Assembly (NCBI GenBank): GCA_021159015.1
Contig: JAGGSQ010000042.1
Location: 557 to 64,556, forward strand
DNA from: Candidatus Omnitrophota bacterium
Lineage (GTDB): Bacteria; Omnitrophota; Gorgyraeia; Duberdicusellales; Duberdicusellaceae
Direction of reading: 5' to 3'
Length of the DNA: 64,000 nucleotides
The notes beneath the pieces were generated by a model that worked only from the letters and a program-made list of their open reading frames with translations, did not search any database and was not told the origin of the DNA. Position numbers and translations under genes: made by a program. Positions 3,509 through 57,270 of the stretch are shown here, one piece after another; the first letter of the stretch is position 1; every line of letters begins with the position of its first letter.

Positions 3509-4696
3509 TTATTCTCCAATTACCGACGCCAGTGCCCGCACGTCTTTAGTTTGAGAATAGGCAGCAAAGAGCTGGCTGGCCAGATGGGGATGGTCAGAGC
3601 GGGTTTTACCTTCTCCTACATTGTCTTTCATTAAGCGTGAGAGAGAAGGAAGTCCCGCAATAGGAGGATAAACTCCTTTTTGAGCCAGTTCTCTTTCCAG
3701 AACAATCTGCCCCTCCGTAATATAGCCGGTTAAATCCGGCACGGGATGCGTAATGTCATCATTGGGCATAGTAAGGATAGGAAGTTGAGTGATAGAGCCC
3801 GTAGCACTAGCTACCAGGCCGGCTCTTTCGTATAAGGAAGCCAGGTCACTATAGAGATAGCCCGGATATCCTTTGCGCGCGGGAACTTCTCCCCGCAGGG
3901 TAGAGACCTCTCTCAAAGCCTCGCAATAATTGCTCATATCTGTCATAATCACCAAAACATGATAATTCTTACGGAAAGCTAAAAACTCTGCCAAAGTAAG
4001 AGCGGAACGCGGCGTAGCCAGGCGTTCAATGGAAGGGGCATCGGCCAGGCTTAAAAAAATGGCTACCCTCTCCAGAACGCCGCTCTGGCGGAAATTGTCA
4101 ATAAAAAAGCGGGCCGTATCATATTTTATGCCCATAGCGGCAAACACCACGCAAAAGTTAGAATCTTCATCTACGATTTTTGCCTGACGCACAATCTGCG
4201 CGGCCAGGCGGTCGTGAGGAAGACCGGCGCCGGAGAAAATGGGCAATTTTTGCCCTCTTACCAAAGTATTCATAACATCAATGGCAGAAATCCCTGTCTG
4301 GATAAACTTCTCCGGATAGGTACGCGCTGTAGGGTTAATAGCTAAGCCGGAAACATCTCTCCGTTCCTCTTCCTTACCTAAGCCAAAACCATCCTGAGGA
4401 CGGCCCAGCCCGTCAAAGATTCTTCCCAGCATCTCTTCCGAAACTCCTAAATCTAAAGGCCTCTCCTTAAAAATCAGACGAGAGGACTTAAGACCTAAAT
4501 TGGCTGTACCTTCAAAAACTTGTACTACAGCTGCACCTTTTTCTACTTCTAAAGTTATGCCTAGACGCCTGTGGCCTTCCTCGTCAATTACTTCCACCAG
4601 CTCGTTATAGCCAACATCGTGGATATTTTTAATAAAAACCAACGGGCCTACTATCTCATTTAGGCCACGATATTCCTTCTCACCTCTAACGCTCAT
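3509..4696 (-). CDS. atpB: V-type ATP synthase subunit B (non-catalytic); ORF ends at an in-frame TAA and the conserved C-terminus continues in frame to 3314
   Basis: 395 aa ORF, homologous throughout to V/A-ATPase B. It stops after ASVIGE. The next 64 codons in the same frame (ELTPLDHIYLKFGEAFEKKFLSQDYEEERGIYESLDLGWRVLSILPKEELHRITGEEIEKYYGR) are the canonical B-subunit C-terminus. Confidence 0.85.
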
Positions 4697-27783: not shown

Positions 27784-28377
27784 CTATTCTCCCGCTTTAA
27801 AATTACCCTTCTTCACTAAATCTATTACTACTCCGGTAATAACCTTATCTATTTTACCTCTATTAACCATTTCCTGCAGCTCTTTTTTAACCTCCTCCTA
27901 CCCCAGAGCTTTACGATAAGGCCTGTCTGTAGTTAAGGCATCATAGATATCGGCTACGGTAAGAATTCTTACCTCTAACGTCTTTATATCATTTTCCAGT
28001 TTATTAATAATCTCCTGAAAGGTACCGGCTAGGCTTGCTACTTCGCCTTTCTCGCGTGCTAAATTAGCAATGAAGCCTTTATTTACGCCGCCGGATGTCA
28101 ACTCTTTCGCTTGAGTACTGAGGATAAATAATTTCTCAAATATTCTACGAATATTAGCAAAAAAAAGTAGAGCGCCGCTGGTCAAAATGAGTATAATCAA
28201 CTCCAGCTGCACCTTAGAAAAAGGAATCAAGACAGATTGTCTGGTATAATTTGATACAAGATAGAACAAGATATAAAGAAGAATAAACAAGGGAAGAAAG
28301 AAAAGAGCTACAAATCCTATTGAGAATAATTTAAAAATATAGCTTGACTTATAAGAAAATTTATATTTCTTCCCCAT
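27784..28377 (-). pseudogene. degraded membrane HAMP-HD-GYP gene (core HD-GYP deleted, in-frame TAG at 27898-27900)
   Basis: The 159-aa ORF is 2 TM helices, a HAMP-like segment, then only the terminal HD-GYP motif TVADIYDALTTDRPYRKALG. After the TAG the same frame continues 37 codons (EEVKKELQEMVNRGKIDKVITGVVIDLVKKGNF...), matching the usual HD-GYP C-terminal extension. The HD and GYP core motifs are absent. Confidence 0.55.
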
Positions 28378-29031: not shown

Positions 29032-29577
29032 TTAAGTTCGAAAAAAACTCAGTATTTCCTCTATTGCTTTTATCTGTCTTTCTATCTCGGGACTCAGTGG
29101 CCCAGATTTTAACAAAGAAGAAAGAGCTGTAAACTCCTTCTGCAGAAACAATATCTTGTCTTTCAAGATAGTATTCATATCTACTAATGCCTGAGAAAGA
29201 TTCTTAAGTTGGTCATTACTACGCGTGTTAAAATTGAGGTTCAACTCCCCTTCTTTAAGACGATCTATCTCTTTTTTAAGCCGATACAAAGGCCCGGATA
29301 TCTTGTGGGAAATCAATAAAGTCAGGATAATCACGGCGAGAGAAGCAAAAACACTTACCCAAAGAATAATCTGAATCACTACCGGTAAGATAAAATCTGA
29401 AGTACTCTTGACGTAGACATGAGTATTTTCTATAGCTACAGTAGTAGAATTTCGCAGAAAGAAAAGAAGCAGAACAGCAATAAAAGCAGAGGAAAGAACA
29501 ACGATATATGCAAATTTAATAATAAATTTTGTCTGAAAACTTTTGTCAATAAAGTAGTGGCGTCTTTTATTATCCAT
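29032..29577 (-). CDS. membrane protein with two TM helices and a HAMP domain
   Basis: 181 aa: TM1, a ~25-aa loop, TM2, then HAMP (ISHKISGPLYRLKKEIDRLKEGELNLNF...LSQALVDMN). It has no output domain. Confidence 0.5.
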   Translation of the reverse strand: MDNKRRHYFIDKSFQTKFIIKFAYIVVLSSAFIAVLLLFFLRNSTTVAIENTHVYVKSTSDFILPVVIQIILWVSVFASLAVIILTLLISHKISGPLYRLKKEIDRLKEGELNLNFNTRSNDQLKNLSQALVDMNTILKDKILFLQKEFTALSSLLKSGPLSPEIERQIKAIEEILSFFRT

Positions 29578-30208
29578 TACTGCCTCCTTCTTGTATTCCT
29601 AATAATTTATAATTTATTTTTATCTTTGCATTCTGACGGAGAGAATTTATCCAACTAGTGAGCGCTTTCTGTTGTTTCTGACGAAAAAGAATAAATTTTA
29701 TTTGTCCGTATATTTCTTCCAAGCTCTTCTTACCAAAGCTCTCTTTATGATTCTCAAAGTAGTCTCTTACTTCGTTCTCAGTAACCTTTATTCTCCCGGA
29801 CAACTCCTTTATTTTTCTGTCTATTATTAACTTAAGCAACGTCTGCTCCCAGAAAAACTGCACATCTTGCAAGAAGCTAGGGTCTTTATCTAAGCCGTCT
29901 CTTTCTGCTTCTAAAAGGATGAGCTTACGATTGATAAAAGAATTAATTAACTTCTTCTTATCAGCAGGAGAAAGCTGCCTCTCTCTGGCAAGACGCAAAA
30001 GAGAAGTATCTACTTCCTGTTTAGTTATCCTAAGCTTGCCTATAGAAATAGCCGTCTCTTTATGAGAGCATTGACAAGCCCAGAATCCGCCTGCCATAAC
30101 AAATACAAGCAATATTAATATTGCCTTCCTCATCTCGTTCCTCCTTTTTATGTTTTTATTATATGCCGGCAGCGGCAAAGCCACAACAAATAAATCCTTA
30201 TGCAACAT
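29570..30208 (-). CDS. SurA N-terminal-domain chaperone-like lipoprotein
   Basis: 212-aa ORF. The internal Met at 30133 starts a lipoprotein-type signal (MRKAILILLVFVMAGGFWAC). The rest resembles the SurA_N/PpiD chaperone domain without a PPIase domain. The annotated N-terminal extension runs into the IS hairpin. Confidence 0.5.
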   Translation of the reverse strand: MLHKDLFVVALPLPAYNKNIKRRNEMRKAILILLVFVMAGGFWACQCSHKETAISIGKLRITKQEVDTSLLRLARERQLSPADKKKLINSFINRKLILLEAERDGLDKDPSFLQDVQFFWEQTLLKLIIDRKIKELSGRIKVTENEVRDYFENHKESFGKKSLEEIYGQIKFILFRQKQQKALTSWINSLRQNAKIKINYKLLGIQEGGSNG

Positions 30209-30233
30209 TTTGCTTCGTAAGCAAAATGTTGCA
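30201..30233. repeat. 33-nt perfect hairpin TGCAACATTTTGCTT-CGT-AAGCAAAATGTTGCA (copy 1, downstream end of the transposase)
   Basis: 15-bp perfect stem with a 3-nt loop. It is identical over 36 nt (including the 5' TTA) to copy 2 at 31198-31230. Confidence 0.9.
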
Positions 30234-31121
30234 TTACACTATCTCACTATGCAGCCAGCGGTAAACCGTCACTCTGTCCACGCCCAACTTCTTTGATATT
30301 TCCAAAATAGAATATCCTCTGGCTAACAACTGCTCTACCAAATAAACCAAAGCTTTTCTGTTTTGAGGAAGACGGGGAAGCTTTCTCCCTTTAATTCTCT
30401 GCATCTTTTTCTCTATTTCCCAAAGATTACTAAATAATTTACTCGACCCCAAAAACATCTTCTTATTTCTTCTCGCCCATTTAATTACTTCTTCATAGAG
30501 CTTTTTTATTGACTTCTTCCCTTCCATTGTTCTGATACTAAAAGATATTTTGCTCATATCTTTGACAAACTTTCTATAGGCAGCCTTAGCTTTTTTGGTG
30601 CTAGAAGGATATACCTCTTCTAAAATTGGCAAAGGGTTAACAAATGAGCTCTTTACATTCTTGACGTATATATCCAAAGAATGCCAATGATATTGAAAAG
30701 GAGAAGTAACTATTCTGGCCCGGTAAGCATTAAGATGTATATACAAAGAGATGGTAAGAAAATAATCTGCATCGTTGCATAGCGCTGCTCTATATCTTCC
30801 CGAAAAAACATGTCCTTTTCTTTCGTATTTGCTGTTAAAGTATAAAGCGTATCTTTTGAATAATTCCTGCATTGCTTTTGACAAGAGATTGTTTCCTGTG
30901 CGAAGCAAGATATGTAAATGATTGGTAAGCAGAGAGAAAGCATATACCTCCAATGAGAACTTAGCAGAAGACTCTTTAAGAAGAGAAATAAACTTAAGAT
31001 AGTCTGACTCCTCCAAGAATACTTTCTCTTTTCCGGGAGCCCGCTGAGTAATATGATATACTCCCCCCTCTATTATAATTTTATTCTGCACTCTTAATAT
31101 CCTCTTCTTGCCTCTATCCAT
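30234..31121 (-). CDS. IS200/IS605-like Y1 (HUH) transposase, RAYT-like, with C-terminal helix-turn-helix extension
   Basis: 295 aa. The N-terminal ~140 aa carry the Y1_Tnp hallmarks (YHITQR, the HUH motif HLHILL and GHVFSGRYRA with the catalytic Tyr region). The C-terminus carries an HTH (ISKKLGVDRVTVYRWL). Identical hairpins flank the gene. Confidence 0.75.
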   Translation of the reverse strand: MDRGKKRILRVQNKIIIEGGVYHITQRAPGKEKVFLEESDYLKFISLLKESSAKFSLEVYAFSLLTNHLHILLRTGNNLLSKAMQELFKRYALYFNSKYERKGHVFSGRYRAALCNDADYFLTISLYIHLNAYRARIVTSPFQYHWHSLDIYVKNVKSSFVNPLPILEEVYPSSTKKAKAAYRKFVKDMSKISFSIRTMEGKKSIKKLYEEVIKWARRNKKMFLGSSKLFSNLWEIEKKMQRIKGRKLPRLPQNRKALVYLVEQLLARGYSILEISKKLGVDRVTVYRWLHSEIV

Positions 31122-31163
31122 ACTGCTTACTTACAAAATCTTACGTTAGGCTCCATTACTAGC

Positions 31164-31191
31164 ATTATACAGAAATTAGACTTTATTGCAA
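31164..31191 (-). promoter_or_regulatory. sigma70-like promoter TTGCAA-N16-TATAAT for the Y1 transposase
   Basis: Read on the minus strand: -35 at 31191-31186 and -10 at 31169-31164, about 45 nt upstream of the ATG and 7 nt from the hairpin foot. Confidence 0.4.
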
Positions 31192-31197
31192 TGGTTA

Positions 31198-31230
31198 TGC
31201 AACATTTTGCTTCGTAAGCAAAATGTTGCA
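31198..31230. repeat. 33-nt perfect hairpin (copy 2, upstream end of the transposase, 36 nt downstream of the tpsA stop)
   Basis: Identical to copy 1, including the 5' flanking TTA. Confidence 0.9.
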
Positions 31231-31266
31231 AATAATATGCCGCAGGAGATTGTTTGCTATTGGCGC

Positions 31267-34200
31267 TTACGACGGTGCGGGAAAAGGAGGTAAAGATTGT
31301 TGATAAAATGCAGTTTTACGCTTTCTCTTCTCTTTCTTCTTTTGGTCTTCGTAGTACTGGTAGAATTTGTTCTTGTCTTTGAGTTTGAGGCTGTTTTCAA
31401 TAAATTCATAAGCTCCCACATCTAAGCGTATGTCGTCAAAAGCAGAAGTATCAGTGGGAGTTAAGGGATGATAAGCATAAAATAAAGGTGTGGCCGGTTC
31501 AAAGGAAGCGAAGCGATAACCGCTAAGAGATTCGAAATAATCTTCCTTAACCTTTGCTGCTTCTTGCTGGTAACGGGGATTGTTGTAAAACTTATGGCGG
31601 TATTGGGCAATGAAAGGTTTATGCCTGCTTACTACCAACTGTGCGAGCCGCTGGTAATCAGCATTACTCTTAGGAGACCAGATTTGCTTGGTGTTAAAAT
31701 AGACAAAGCCCGGAGGATTTAAGGGCTGGGGGAAGCGAGTAGGTATAAGTATAGGGGTATTTAAAGGCGTAATTGTTCCCACTAAATTGCCATAAATTTC
31801 TCTAGTGGGATAGGTAATGGAGAGGTTAGAGATATCTAAATACAGGTCTCCTTTAATAGAGACATTTAAGGGTGTCCCCACAGGGCTAATCTTTCCATTT
31901 GGCGCATTTAAAAAAGAATCCTTTACTGCTGCCACATGCGGACCCGCATTTTCGGCAAGGATCGAACCATTTTCTGCTGTCAGGCGGACACCTGATTTTC
32001 TGGACTGGACTGTTCCGGTAATGGTTATATCCCCAGCAGGAGTTAAGAGATTTATAAAGCCGTCAGAGATAATGCGGTTTATAACAATCGGACCATGAAC
32101 TGTCAGGCCTATTCTGCCACCAGCAGAGATATTATTGAAAGTAACACCATCCATCTCCTCAAGGTATAAATCGTTCCCTGCTACCGCATTAATCGTATTT
32201 GCCCATATGTCAATATCGCCGTTAAAAACGGACATATCTCCTATATTATCCTCAGCCTTTAAATCTACCAAATCACCGCGAATATAGTTGGTATCAGCGG
32301 GGTCAACAAACAAATCGTCACAGATACTGCCCGAGGCGGCATTCAGGTAAACATCACTATCCCCCTTAGCCTGGATATCTCCGACAAAAAGGTCTGAATG
32401 TGTTGTAATATGAATGTCTCCTCCCTCATTGTCCACATGTTTGGCATATAAACCTCCGGTATTGTCTATCACAATGTTCCCCATCCGGGAATTGTCAGCA
32501 ACAAGCATATTTGACCTCGTATCAAGGTCTATACCTTTTTGTGCGTCAATATGAAGTTCATCAGCTGCCACATCGCGGGCAGGAACACCATCCTGCGTAA
32601 TAGAGCCCTGTTTTGCCGTCAGGAAAACATCATTTTTTGTGCCGGCATCTATCCATATTGCCTTAATTCCTGAAACAATGCTAGTTAAACTGATATCATT
32701 GGCATCATTATCCGTGAAAGATGTCTCAACATCTGTGGCGGTTATTTTTCCAAGCGCACTTATGGTTACCGAACCATTGGAAGCTATAACTTTGGAAAGG
32801 TCAATATCATCCCTATCGTAAAACGTTATATTCCCCGCCTTTTTGGAGCGGGCAGTCAAACTGTTTACATCATTATTAAAGTGAAGCATTGTTATATTTC
32901 CGGCCGCAGTCGCAAAAAGGCCTGAAGAATTGACAAAGGCATTGCTTTGTATTATGTCTCCCTTGCCGCTTCCGTCATAATCAGCATTTATATATATGTC
33001 GCCTGCTGTAATAATATTGCCGGAGACCTGTTTAAAGTCACTGCCTGAGTTTAATGTAATAATCCTACCTGCACCACTACTGGTAATATTTGCATAAACT
33101 GAAAGAATATCGTCGTCTCCTCCATCTTCTGCCGCCAACAACGTTATATTTCCACCCGAAGAAACAGGGCTCAATACATTAAGAGGAGAAGCCGCAGATA
33201 TATTAAGCTTTCCCCTGGTATTCACTGCTGAAAATCCATCATTATTAAGATCTAAAAGGTTCAATGTTCCGGTATTGGCAATACCAACGGCATTATCAGT
33301 ATTTACTACGTCAAGGTTCACCACAGTTGTTTCTATAGCATCATTTTCTCCAATACCCGACTCAGCCCTGAGTTTCAAATCTTTCGCCGTAATATTATTG
33401 GAATTGCCATTTGCATCAGTAATTGCCCCATATGCCCTTATATCGGCATTTGTTCCGCAAGATACTGAATCTACTGCTATTTTCCCCAATGCCGTAAGCT
33501 TCAGCGCCTGACCTACAGACACATTGCCTAAAGTGACATTATCCTTTTCACCAATAAAGGCACTGCCAGATACATTAGAAAGGTTTAATGTATCTACACC
33601 TATATCCAGCCAATTCAACTCTCCGGCAGAACCAACATTGTTTGCCTTCATAATGTTCAATGTGCCTGCCGTAAGATATTTACCATCGTTTGAGGTATCG
33701 ATTATGTCCCCATCCGCATTAAGTGTAACAGCATGAGAACCGGCATTAACTGAGCCGTTTAGTCTGATATCATCAGAGGACCTAAGAGACACATCTCCCG
33801 AAGCTGTTATAGTGTAATTACTGAAAAGATTTAAATTGCCACTGGTAGTAGAAATATTTATGCTTCTTGCAGATATATCTTTTAAACTCAATGCCCCACC
33901 AGAAGAAACCTCACTTATATAAATATCGCCGGCACCATTATTAACTGCAACATAAGAAATTCTGGTATCTAAAGCATCGTTGCCTGCCGCCCCAACATTG
34001 CCTGCATTATTCATTATTAATCCATCCGCCCAAATATAACTTGTGTTATCTGTATCCAAAATATCCGCTCCTGCCGGATTAAGTCGAACAAGCTTGCCCT
34101 TCGCATTGAGATTGGCTCCAAAAACCATATTTCCTTTAGAAAAGAAATCAACGTCATCGCCTGCAGACGTATCTCCTATAATAGAGAGGCTGCCCATACT

Positions 34201-55320: not shown

Positions 55321-56799
55321 TCACTTTCTAAGCTGCTTAACTAACTTTTTTGCCAGATTCAACGCCTGAGCAGCGGTTTTTATATTGCCGAGGGCTTGCT
55401 CTTCTTCAATTTTACGCAGGATTTCACCTACTAAAGGAGAAGGATTAATGCCGGTCCCCCTCATAATATCAAAACCATTAACTAGCCGCGGCAAAGTATT
55501 CTTACGTTTGCTCTCCCAGTACTTTTCCCAGAGAGAAAAAAACAATCTCCTTTGACGCCTCCTTCTTTTCTTGTCTATCAAAGGCCCGCGTGTAGCATCT
55601 AAATCAGCCAGGGAAAGCAGAATTACGGCGGGTGAGTCTTCTTTCGCGGCACGAAAGAAACGAAAAACTGCCCGCGGCGATAAAGACAAATTGTCGGTAA
55701 GATAACCAGGGCGTAGATGAAAATAAACTAAGTTAGCTAAGAAACTTTCTTCTCTTTTGGACAGTTTAAGACGCTGGGAAATCTGACAGGCAAAATCACG
55801 CCCAATTTTCTCATGCTCCCAAAAAATAAGCTTACCTCTTCTTTTCCTTTTAGCCTGTGGCTTTCCCAAATCATGCAGAAGGCAGGCTAGTTTAATAAGC
55901 TGGCGGCGCGTATGCCGGGGAGAAATCTCATAACTAAGATATCCTAAGGCTTCTCCTCTCTGAAAGAAATTATGCCGTAATAACTTCTCCAATTGCCTTA
56001 AAGTTTCCAAAGAATGTGCCCACACATCTAAATGGTGATAAGGACCCTGCTTAAGACCGCGGCAAAGCTTAACTTGAGGAAATAGCTCATCCCAAATAAA
56101 TACCTTATCCATTTTTATAGCCAATCTCCCTGCAGACTCAGAAGAAAAAATTTTAAACAATTCCTCACTTATTCTTTCGCCGGCTACTTTACTTAAGAGC
56201 TGACGCTGTCGGTAAATTTCTTTAAGCAAAGACGGGGCTAGTTTAAAGCCGTATAAAGCAACCAAACTAAAAGCCCGCAATATTCGTAAAGGGTCATCTA
56301 GCAAGGCATCTTTATAAGAAAGGCGCAAGGTTTTTTTCTTGAGATCTATAAAAGCCTGCTCATCACCTAAAAGTTTCATCTCTCTAAAGTCCTTAATATC
56401 CAAGCCTAAGCTATTTATAGTAAAATCCCGTTGTTTTAGGTCTTCCGCAATATCTTTCGCCCGCAGGAGGCTAAAGTCATAATGAAGTATGCGCCCCTTA
56501 TATTTTTTTACTACGCGGGCATTCTTCTTTATCTTTCTATCCAAAACAACAAAACTTCCCCCGATAGCCGCCGAAAATTTGCGCGCCAAGGAAAACACAT
56601 TGCGGTTAAGAGCAAAGTCAAAGTCTCTGGCCTCCAGAGAACTTTTAAGAAAAAAATCCCGCAAAAAGCCTCCTACTAAATAAATATTAATACGGTAAAG
56701 CTCTGCTATTTTTTTTAAGCGGCGCAGATAGGGAATCTTTTTAATCTCTCTCTTCAAATCTCGCATTTCTCTCTGTGCAACATTTTGCTTACGAAGCAT
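55321..56799 (-). CDS. cca: CCA-adding tRNA nucleotidyltransferase / poly(A) polymerase family with HD domain
   Basis: Pol-beta head (IYLVGGFLRD...RDFDFAL) plus an HD motif (LHDLGKP). The first 11 codons of the ORF-track call are encoded by the degenerate hairpin copy, so the real start is probably Met-12 at 56766. Confidence 0.8.
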   Translation of the reverse strand: MLRKQNVAQREMRDLKREIKKIPYLRRLKKIAELYRINIYLVGGFLRDFFLKSSLEARDFDFALNRNVFSLARKFSAAIGGSFVVLDRKIKKNARVVKKYKGRILHYDFSLLRAKDIAEDLKQRDFTINSLGLDIKDFREMKLLGDEQAFIDLKKKTLRLSYKDALLDDPLRILRAFSLVALYGFKLAPSLLKEIYRQRQLLSKVAGERISEELFKIFSSESAGRLAIKMDKVFIWDELFPQVKLCRGLKQGPYHHLDVWAHSLETLRQLEKLLRHNFFQRGEALGYLSYEISPRHTRRQLIKLACLLHDLGKPQAKRKRRGKLIFWEHEKIGRDFACQISQRLKLSKREESFLANLVYFHLRPGYLTDNLSLSPRAVFRFFRAAKEDSPAVILLSLADLDATRGPLIDKKRRRRQRRLFFSLWEKYWESKRKNTLPRLVNGFDIMRGTGINPSPLVGEILRKIEEEQALGNIKTAAQALNLAKKLVKQLRK

Positions 56800-56808
56800 T
56801 TTGTTGCA
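56776..56808. repeat. solo degenerate copy of the 33-nt hairpin in opposite orientation (TGCAACATTTTGCTT-ACG-AAGCATTTTGTTGCA)
   Basis: It matches the reverse complement of copies 1 and 2 except that one arm reads ATTTTG instead of AAAATG, so the stem carries a 4-nt bubble. It lies in the 42-nt gap between the metallophosphoesterase stop and the cca ATG. Confidence 0.75.
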
Positions 56809-57270
56809 TTAAGAAAGGGCTATAATCTCCGCCCGCAGGTTGCTGATATCTACTACTGCCAGCGTAGGTCTGCCGCTCAGATAACCGCACACCTCGCCGG
56901 GATTAACCAGAAGCTTCCCTTTCTCCCTTCTTATTTCCGGATGATGAGTGTGGCCAAACACAAGGATATCCCCTTCCCTATCCTGAAATTCATGCATAAG
57001 GACAATCTTTCTGCCTTCTTTAGAAATTTCTAAAGGCGCCGCTTGGATACGTCCTTCTGAGTTCTTCCTCAGCCCTTCTTTCTCACCGTCATTATTGCCA
57101 AAAACTCCCCACCAGGGACAACGCAATTTTCCTAAAGGTTTAAGAGAAAAAGGAGCGATGAAATCGCCCGCATGCAAAACCAGTTCTACTTCTTTCTGAT
57201 TAAGAAAATTAACTGCTTTCTCAATAAGAGGTAAATTATCGTGGGTATCAGAAATAAGACCAATCAGCAT
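56809..57270 (-). CDS. metallophosphoesterase (YfcE/MJ0936 family)
   Basis: 153 aa with the motifs ISDTHDN, HAGD, GNND and GHTHHP. Confidence 0.8.
   Translation of the reverse strand: MLIGLISDTHDNLPLIEKAVNFLNQKEVELVLHAGDFIAPFSLKPLGKLRCPWWGVFGNNDGEKEGLRKNSEGRIQAAPLEISKEGRKIVLMHEFQDREGDILVFGHTHHPEIRREKGKLLVNPGEVCGYLSGRPTLAVVDISNLRAEIIALS

Follow-up and report, generated by a model that had tools for sequence, protein, structure and literature searches.

A fixed Y1/HUH transposase-like gene with flanking hairpin repeats in Omnitrophota, probably a unit of the REPtron/TIRtron type

What is a transposase gene doing between two identical hairpins at the end of a giant gene? The question arises in a 64,000-nucleotide (nt) stretch of DNA from a Candidatus Omnitrophota bacterium (assembly GCA_021159015.1, contig JAGGSQ010000042.1), referred to here as the window. 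A gene for a 295-residue Y1 transposase of the HUH (histidine–hydrophobic–histidine) class lies there on the − strand, 36 nt after a giant gene and between two perfect palindromes, as an earlier note on this DNA had described; each sequence feature in that description was confirmed. That note offered two explanations for the layout: hairpin-dependent transposition of an insertion sequence (IS) of the IS200/IS605 type, or a REP-associated tyrosine transposase (RAYT) with its repetitive extragenic palindromic (REP) hairpins. The best explanation of the unit, to which we assign a probability of roughly 0.7, is that it is of the REPtron/TIRtron type: a fixed, single-copy, RAYT-like Y1/HUH gene with a helix–turn–helix (HTH) domain, flanked by cognate palindromes of which a few copies lie at the 3′ ends of other genes. 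The transposase gene is probably domesticated, and not an active insertion sequence.

The repeat is the 33-mer TGCAACATTTTGCTTCGTAAGCAAAATGTTGCA, which reads TGCAACATTTTGCTT-CGT-AAGCAAAATGTTGCA and forms a 15-bp perfect stem closed by a 3-nt loop. Exact copies on the + strand occupy 30201–30233 and 31198–31230, each preceded by TTA, so that the identity of the pair and of the preceding triplet, both claimed before, is borne out. Folded as single-stranded DNA, the two flanking copies have energies of −16.8 and −16.3 kcal/mol (z = −8.8 and −7.5), and an added A30200–T30234 pair lengthens the stem of the gene-downstream copy to 16 bp. The gene-upstream copy lies 36 nt past the stop of the giant gene and 6 nt ahead of the −35 hexamer of the Y1 gene, while the downstream copy adjoins the TAA stop of the Y1 gene (30234–30236), T30234 being common to both.

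A third copy, at 56776–56808, is an addition to the earlier description. It is imperfect, with a 7-bp base, a 3 × 3 internal loop and a 5-bp top (−9.1 kcal/mol); 3 positions are changed in one arm, and its loop is inverted relative to those of the flanking two. This solo copy adjoins the stop codon (56809–56811) of a metallophosphoesterase gene (56809–57270, − strand), upstream of a CCA-adding-enzyme-like gene, and a strain that is 99% identical (L005) has conserved it in place. A fuzzy scan of the 64-kb window found no copy beyond these three, the window showed no REPIN doublets, and an Rfam scan of 29900–31500 returned nothing meaningful. In strain L006 (99% identical), the loop alone of the upstream hairpin is inverted from ACG to CGT (window 31213–31215, L006 64–66), and the downstream hairpin carries one stem mismatch (window 30224, L006 1055); exact identity within the flanking pair is thus strain-specific. 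These differences point to a flip-flop of the loop or to gene conversion among copies of the repeat, although an assembly artefact is conceivable.

Assemblers can create or flip palindromes, and the inverted loop of one strain fits such an origin, but it is hardly credible that the repeats as a whole are chance palindromes or artefacts of assembly. The 33-mer gave 0 matches at ≤3 mismatches in 100 dinucleotide-preserving shuffles, the same arrangement is present in independent JGI and Logan assemblies, and ten homologue lineages show it again with other sequences.

The protein is a Y1/HUH enzyme, and its cognate DNA is almost certainly the flanking hairpins. Pfam Y1_Tnp (PF01797) matches residues 22–129 (1.9e-11; 44.6 bits against a cut-off of 23 bits) and HTH_23 matches residues 264–291 (1e-6). 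The HUH motif is H68-L-H70 (30912–30920) and the catalytic tyrosine is Y127 (30741–30743), with N131 at +4, giving a tyrosine signature Y127-I-H-L-N131 of the form Y-x3-N; the HUH-to-tyrosine spacing of 59 residues is inside the usual range quoted in PMC6006769. Across an alignment of 34 homologues, H68, H70, Y127, H129, N131 and S148 are invariant, and the serine motif Y144-x-W146-x-S148 is invariant or nearly so. The HTH domain is likewise conserved across homologues.

An AlphaFold model computed on the 34-sequence alignment (mean pLDDT 84.3, pTM 0.77) predicts a Y1 core followed by a helical linker and, at the end, a three-helix bundle, the helices of the HTH spanning residues 252–267, 272–279 and 283–291. 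The top match of this predicted model among Protein Data Bank (PDB) entries in Foldseek is 4ER8_A (E = 2.7e-5; target TM-score 0.70; root-mean-square deviation 2.2 Å over 138 columns), the Escherichia coli REP-associated tyrosine transposase bound to a REP hairpin. The TnpA proteins of IS608, ISDra2 and IS200 rank below it, with deviations of 4–7 Å (about 7 Å for IS608). The similarity was reached by structure comparison; phmmer and the family profile, run against PDB sequences, gave no match to RAYT or IS608.

The protein belongs to a tight clade, and a word-indexed search returned 315 matches. The best 120 of these are nearly all 277–338 residues long, 39–54% identical and full-length, and those with names are mostly from Candidatus Omnitrophota; BU251_08390 of Velamenicoccus archaeovorus is one of them. 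An exhaustive profile search extended the family to 45,121 cluster representatives at E ≤ 1e-3, of which 3,163 are at ≤ 1e-30. The next tier beneath the tight clade is large (310–325 residues, about 175–195 bits), and 7 of 10 proteins sampled from it carry Bac_DnaA_C beside Y1_Tnp. Judged by their domain content in sequence, the nearest wider relatives are thus Y1 plus Bac_DnaA_C proteins, the architecture of TnpA_REP subclass 2.1, or TIRYT.

Palindromes accompany the homologues as well. Ten lineages at 41–54% identity were compared (P0002, P0003, P0004, P0008, P0012, P0045, P0051, P0082, P0100 and P0112), and in 10/10 the gene is flanked by lineage-specific palindromes, the first at the promoter, 60–190 nt upstream of the gene, and the second at the stop codon or no more than a few nt away. 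An exact 31-nt GCAAC...GTTGC span is kept in L010, L029, L033, L035, L045 and the window, and the stem base ATGCAACA...TGTTGCAT is usual among repeats with this span. Other sequences appear in the same layout in V. archaeovorus (TAATGAGAC...GTCTCATTA), in a WOR-3-labelled metagenome-assembled genome (MAG; AAATTACACA...TGTGTAATTT), and with P0082 (TTTACAAA...TTTGTAAA) and P0012 (GAAACA...TGTTTC). Most relatives have an imperfect hairpin with a 7–9-bp base, a 2–5-nt internal loop, a 3–5-bp top and a 3-nt loop. The solo copy of the window shares this form, and the perfect stems flanking the window gene are the exception. The earlier note had looked to hundreds of copies unrelated to transposase genes, or to relatives without hairpins, as signs against its proposal; the hairpin is low-copy, and relatives do carry hairpins.

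Covariation was assessed on 19 distinct aligned copies. Bases are paired in 80% of the cells, and 7 of the 16 pairs have changed on both sides; the observed score was reached by 0 of 500 shuffles, and slid registers pair at 31–45%. Compensatory examples include A–T replaced by G–C at the stem base, and TGCTT/AAGCA as against CTGTT/AACAG at the top. These changes support a hairpin. A separate perfect palindrome, TTTTACAAAATTAT-ACG-ATAATTTTGTAAAA, with a 14-bp stem and an ACG loop, lies inside the P0003 coding region (L010 3582–3612); it encodes the conserved peptide FTKLYDNFVK and is therefore not an insertion.

The gene stays in place. The exact protein was found at this locus only, in two JGI contigs with the same neighbours and in two 1.02-kb Logan contigs ending inside the hairpins. 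There is one Y1 gene in the window, where tblastn detected no second across the 64 kb, and one at each homologue locus. Identical proteins occur in one context each for P0012 (12 contigs), P0045 (21 contigs) and P0051 (8 contigs). P0045 and P0051 are 76% identical and have the order pilin–Y1–CvpA–NIF3–DnaG–RpoD in common, a shared neighbourhood that implies vertical inheritance at a fixed site.

The hairpins do occur elsewhere. A solo hairpin (L007) lies on a different contig of the metagenome of a 99%-identical sister strain, 19 nt downstream of one gene and upstream of a tRNA gene. A metagenome scan for the hairpin yielded three loci only, all from one sister-strain sample, the source sample 3300017593 giving none. 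The complete genome of V. archaeovorus (CP019384, 1.97 Mb) has its cognate hairpin at 7 exact sites, together with variants and lone arms; of about 12 hairpins, 8 lie where there is no Y1 gene. One gene that stays put while its cognate palindromes are dispersed is the pattern of a REPtron, not that of an insertion sequence. Around the V. archaeovorus gene (L008), three hairpin units lie upstream at 2711–2990, one perfect and two degenerate, and a lone arm lies about 650 nt downstream (4517–4532), a small cluster of the REP kind, such as surrounds E. coli tnpA_REP.

The layout could also be that of an autonomous insertion sequence of the IS200/IS605 type, in which the 1.03-kb hairpin-to-hairpin segment would move as a single-stranded circle with the hairpins as its left and right ends; we regard this as quite unlikely. 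It would explain why the gene is exactly bracketed by hairpins of the same orientation and why it encodes a Y1_Tnp domain with HUH and tyrosine, and the module-free TPS/SurA-like operon of a distant relative implies that the module arrived at some time. Logan contigs of 1019–1024 nt span the gene from hairpin to hairpin (L003, L004 and L034) and would suit it too. These were considered as excised circles or a sign of a multicopy state and rejected as such, as the 33-nt repeat would be expected to break a k = 31 de Bruijn graph. The single copy per locus, the confinement of identical proteins to one context, the synteny of 76%-identical orthologues and the solo hairpins without a gene all speak against a mobile element.

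The ends of the unit differ from those of IS608 and ISDra2 as well. IS200/IS605 elements share with it the Y1/HUH chemistry, the Pfam family, hairpins near both gene ends and an adjoining foot, but their left and right hairpins are distinct and fixed on the same strand. Here the ends are identical and their relative orientation is variable among lineages: they form direct repeats in the window as in L010, L033 and L045, and inverted repeats in V. archaeovorus, L035, L046 and L048, with a flip even in a 99%-identical strain. The unit has no multicopy state, no second context and no tnpB. Its protein has 295 residues and a Y-x3-N signature, as against about 130–155 residues for TnpA and the Y----Q signature of the IS200 type (PMC6006769), and the predicted fold is nearer to the monomeric RAYT (2.2 Å) than to IS608 TnpA (about 7 Å). 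Of the two explanations offered at the outset, RAYT with REP is therefore favoured and the insertion sequence is not, because of the single fixed locus, the solo hairpins, the RAYT-like fold and the Y-x3-N signature.

The repeats have a regular position with respect to transcription and translation signals. The promoter proposed earlier, TTGCAA-N16-TATAAT, was located at 31191–31164 (− strand) and begins 6 nt past the upstream hairpin. In L010, L035 and L045 the upstream hairpin itself has TTGCAT at the end of its 3′ arm, exactly 16 nt ahead of a perfect TATAAT; this arrangement was read straight from the sequence, and a strict scorer demanding ≥4/6 matches at −35 misses it. The TATAAT of these three loci lies just 6–7 nt ahead of a plausible ATG, which suggests leaderless mRNAs. 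The sequences further suggest that the annotated starts are too far downstream in L010 and L045, and that the start of P0002 in L029 is too far upstream. In L046, TTGACA-16-TATACT follows directly after the hairpin.

At the other end of the gene, in V. archaeovorus and L045 as in the window, the TAA stop adjoins the hairpin or belongs to it. Many solo hairpins of the TAATGAGAC...GTCTCATTA type (L018–L028, from V. archaeovorus CP019384 and a related MAG) contribute TAA/TTA that closes adjacent frames of 145–399 codons. The stop-codon hairpins suggest insertion at, or selection for, gene 3′ ends. One hairpin (L019 5431–5467) supplies stop codons on both strands together. In E. coli, REPs near stop codons can lower translation of the upstream gene.

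Such placement would also be expected if the palindromes were mainly operators in double-stranded DNA or RNA elements, the HTH binding TGCAACA/TGTTGCA half-sites for autoregulation, the hairpins serving as 3′-end stabilizers, terminators or translation dampers, and the Y1 domain having some other role on single-stranded DNA. The outer half-sites of 7–8 nt, at fixed spacing, are the best-conserved part of the repeat, and the inner part is often unpaired. The upstream copy adjoins or overlaps the −35 box, at a fixed 16 nt from TATAAT in several lineages; downstream and solo copies adjoin or include stop codons; and an ordinary intrinsic terminator stands at the equivalent place in a distant relative (L051). 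We nevertheless hold this to be unlikely as the principal explanation. The inner-stem exchanges of TGCTT/AAGCA and CTGTT/AACAG would be needless for two outer half-sites, the flanking hairpins are followed by no T-run and were not called in a terminator scan, and the invariance of the catalytic HUH and tyrosine across the family favours retained DNA cleavage. Operator or RNA functions are, moreover, compatible with a REPtron/TIRtron-type unit and do not exclude it.

For the REPtron/TIRtron-type unit, a mechanism can be proposed from homology. The repeat, when single-stranded, for example on the lagging-strand template, would fold into a hairpin, and the Y1 domain would recognize this hairpin together with the foot (T)TA-TGCAACA. 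The HUH-bound metal and Y127 would cut and rejoin the DNA beside the hairpin, so that hairpin units might now and then be copied or moved while the gene stays in place. Through the HTH the protein probably also recognizes the half-sites of the palindrome as double-stranded DNA, and the HTH probably autoregulates the gene, given that the upstream copy overlaps or adjoins the −35 box. Fused as it is to the stop codon, the downstream copy probably acts as an RNA 3′ hairpin.

Among known systems, the closest in architecture is TnpA_REP subclass 2.1, whose members have a C-terminal Bac_DnaA_C, HTH_23 or HTH_28 domain and a serine motif after the tyrosine (Quentin et al. 2018, PMC6006769), and which has been equated with the TIRYT/TIRtron of Di Nocera et al. 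2013, named for terminal inverted repeats (TIRs; PMC6006769, PMC3733652). The C-terminal HTH was thus rightly noted before as atypical for IS200 TnpA, yet it is a defining trait of this subclass (PMC6006769, PMC3733652). The Omnitrophota protein likewise combines a RAYT-like Y1/HUH core, the serine motif and a C-terminal HTH, and the inverted repeats on either side of its gene have no relation to GTAG REPs; the assignment to subclass 2.1 is one of architecture and motifs. The GGGGWSAS motif of most published TIRs has 0 matches on both strands of 30100–31330. This motif is not strictly defining, unrelated and partly self-complementary TIRs being also on record (PMC3733652). Certain TIRs are self-complementary throughout and make up families of moderate abundance (Di Nocera et al., PMC3733652), so that the Omnitrophota arrangement falls within the TIRtron concept.

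The E. coli RAYT/REPtron (4ER8; PMC8266576) is the best structural match, and it too has a single-copy, vertically kept gene flanked by cognate palindromes, with further palindrome copies at the 3′ ends of other genes. The coexistence of perfect palindromes with bulged or imperfect ones recalls the two REP groups of PMC8266576. The two proteins differ in size, the Omnitrophota protein having 295 residues with a helical linker and an HTH, as against about 165 residues.

Several observations weigh against the REPtron/TIRtron assignment. The GT[AG]G foot and the contacts of W94, Q95 and R104 are criteria for REP and RAYT (PMC6006769), whereas the foot here is (T)TA/TAA-TGCAAC, with no GT[AG]G, and the GTAG-contacting W94/Q95 are replaced, the segment reading KGHVF(C/S)G. 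The best NCBIfam model, NF047646 (REP_Tyr_transpos), scores 52.3 bits and does not reach its equivalog cut-off of 80. Copy number is low, with 3 copies in 64 kb plus at least 1 solo copy in the sister-strain metagenome, and about 12 in V. archaeovorus (some 4–12 overall), compared with tens to hundreds for canonical REPs, so that ongoing dispersal is weakly supported. Exact and degenerate scans for the hairpin in the GTDB representative genomes, a collection without the source species, gave 0 matches. Cleavage and rejoining at the hairpin by HUH and tyrosine are presumed from homology, and a dimeric operator in double-stranded DNA would also predict covariation within the palindrome.

The arrangement is of the known REPtron/TIRtron kind, a new example in a little-studied phylum. 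What is new is that a RAYT-like clade with an HTH has a clear hairpin partner, a repeat conserved in its position at both promoter and stop codon; automatic and manual searches near subclass 2.1 genes had given no REP-like sequences (Quentin et al., PMC6006769). A search of a literature library found no paper joining Omnitrophota, transposase and palindromes. The HTH-bearing RAYT-like branch (the 45,121 representatives of the profile search) thereby gains a defined candidate substrate, the 33-nt hairpin with its ATGCAACA base, and the Y1 and HTH recognition modules become testable in vitro on one 33-nt substrate. It is possible, although we would not lean towards it, that the Omnitrophota clade is the first HTH-bearing TnpA_REP of the subclass 2.1 type to be tied to a true hairpin repeat family, with the repeat perhaps built into host expression by way of a foot that supplies TAA stops and a 3′ arm that supplies the −35 box. 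If so, the HTH would read the duplex for regulation and the Y1 domain would process the folded single strand, a two-mode recognition not described for RAYTs. For annotation, the Y1 gene and its Omnitrophota homologues (about 300) should not be scored as active insertion sequences, and stop-codon hairpins should be taken as repeat units, not terminators.

Table 1. Features of the Y1 module and its surroundings, in window coordinates.
Feature	Position	Strand	Basis or remark
Gene for 295-residue Y1/HUH protein with C-terminal HTH, RAYT-like, TnpA_REP subclass 2.1-like	30234..31121	-	
Catalytic Y1/HUH core, residues ~15-150	30672..31079	-	alignment, Pfam, NCBIfam, model
C-terminal three-helix HTH, residues ~252-291	30249..30368	-	Pfam HTH_23 and other HTH families, model
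Gene-upstream repeat copy	31195..31230	-	TTA 31195-31197 is part of the conserved foot
Gene-downstream repeat copy	30200..30234	-	33-nt core 30201-30233; 16-bp stem with A30200-T30234
Solo repeat copy	56776..56808	+	imperfect; no transposase gene near
Putative sigma-70-like promoter of the Y1 gene, TTGCAA-16-TATAAT	31164..31191	-	10/12 matches
Giant TPS-domain gene (PF05860), 6608 residues	31267-51093	-	ends 36 nt from hairpin
SurA_N-like gene, downstream of Y1 module	29570-30133		strong AGGAGG site before ATG

The giant neighbour, tpsA, is incidental to the module. It had been suggested that the position at the 3′ end of this gene reflects an insertion hotspot or co-mobilization, and both were rejected: homologues lie in unrelated contexts (two-component regulators, glycosyltransferases, NADH dehydrogenase, pilins and sugar-nucleotide enzymes), and the syntenic site is empty in L051. 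In this distant relative, a homologue 44% identical to the SurA_N-like protein of the window follows the TPS-domain gene after 140 nt and is succeeded by a HAMP gene, with no Y1 module between. A classical intrinsic terminator, GGGAGGCC...GGCCTCCC followed by T7, lies after the TPS gene (L051 5861–6000) at the place taken by the Y1 module in the window (30134–31266). As the relative keeps TPS directly before the SurA-like gene, the Y1 module is a lineage-specific arrival in a conserved operon junction. The GC content showed no contrast between the module and its neighbours, and the Y1/hairpin finding does not bear on what the giant TPS protein does.

Three further observations concern the surroundings. 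An operon of TPS giant, SurA_N-like, HAMP-like and 186–188-residue genes is common to distant Omnitrophota-like genomes. Inside the 6608-residue TPS gene, the segment 38600–49750 holds many families of direct repeats (D1–D5 and D7–D9; 24–65 nt, 60–96% identical), as expected for a repetitive β-helical exoprotein. On the far side of the module, a 159-residue open reading frame (27898–28377, − strand) is an in-frame internal deletion of about 861 nt from a 484-residue GAF/HD-GYP-like protein, which is intact in the 99%-identical strain (L006 2902–4356), while L001 and L002 have the deletion of the window.

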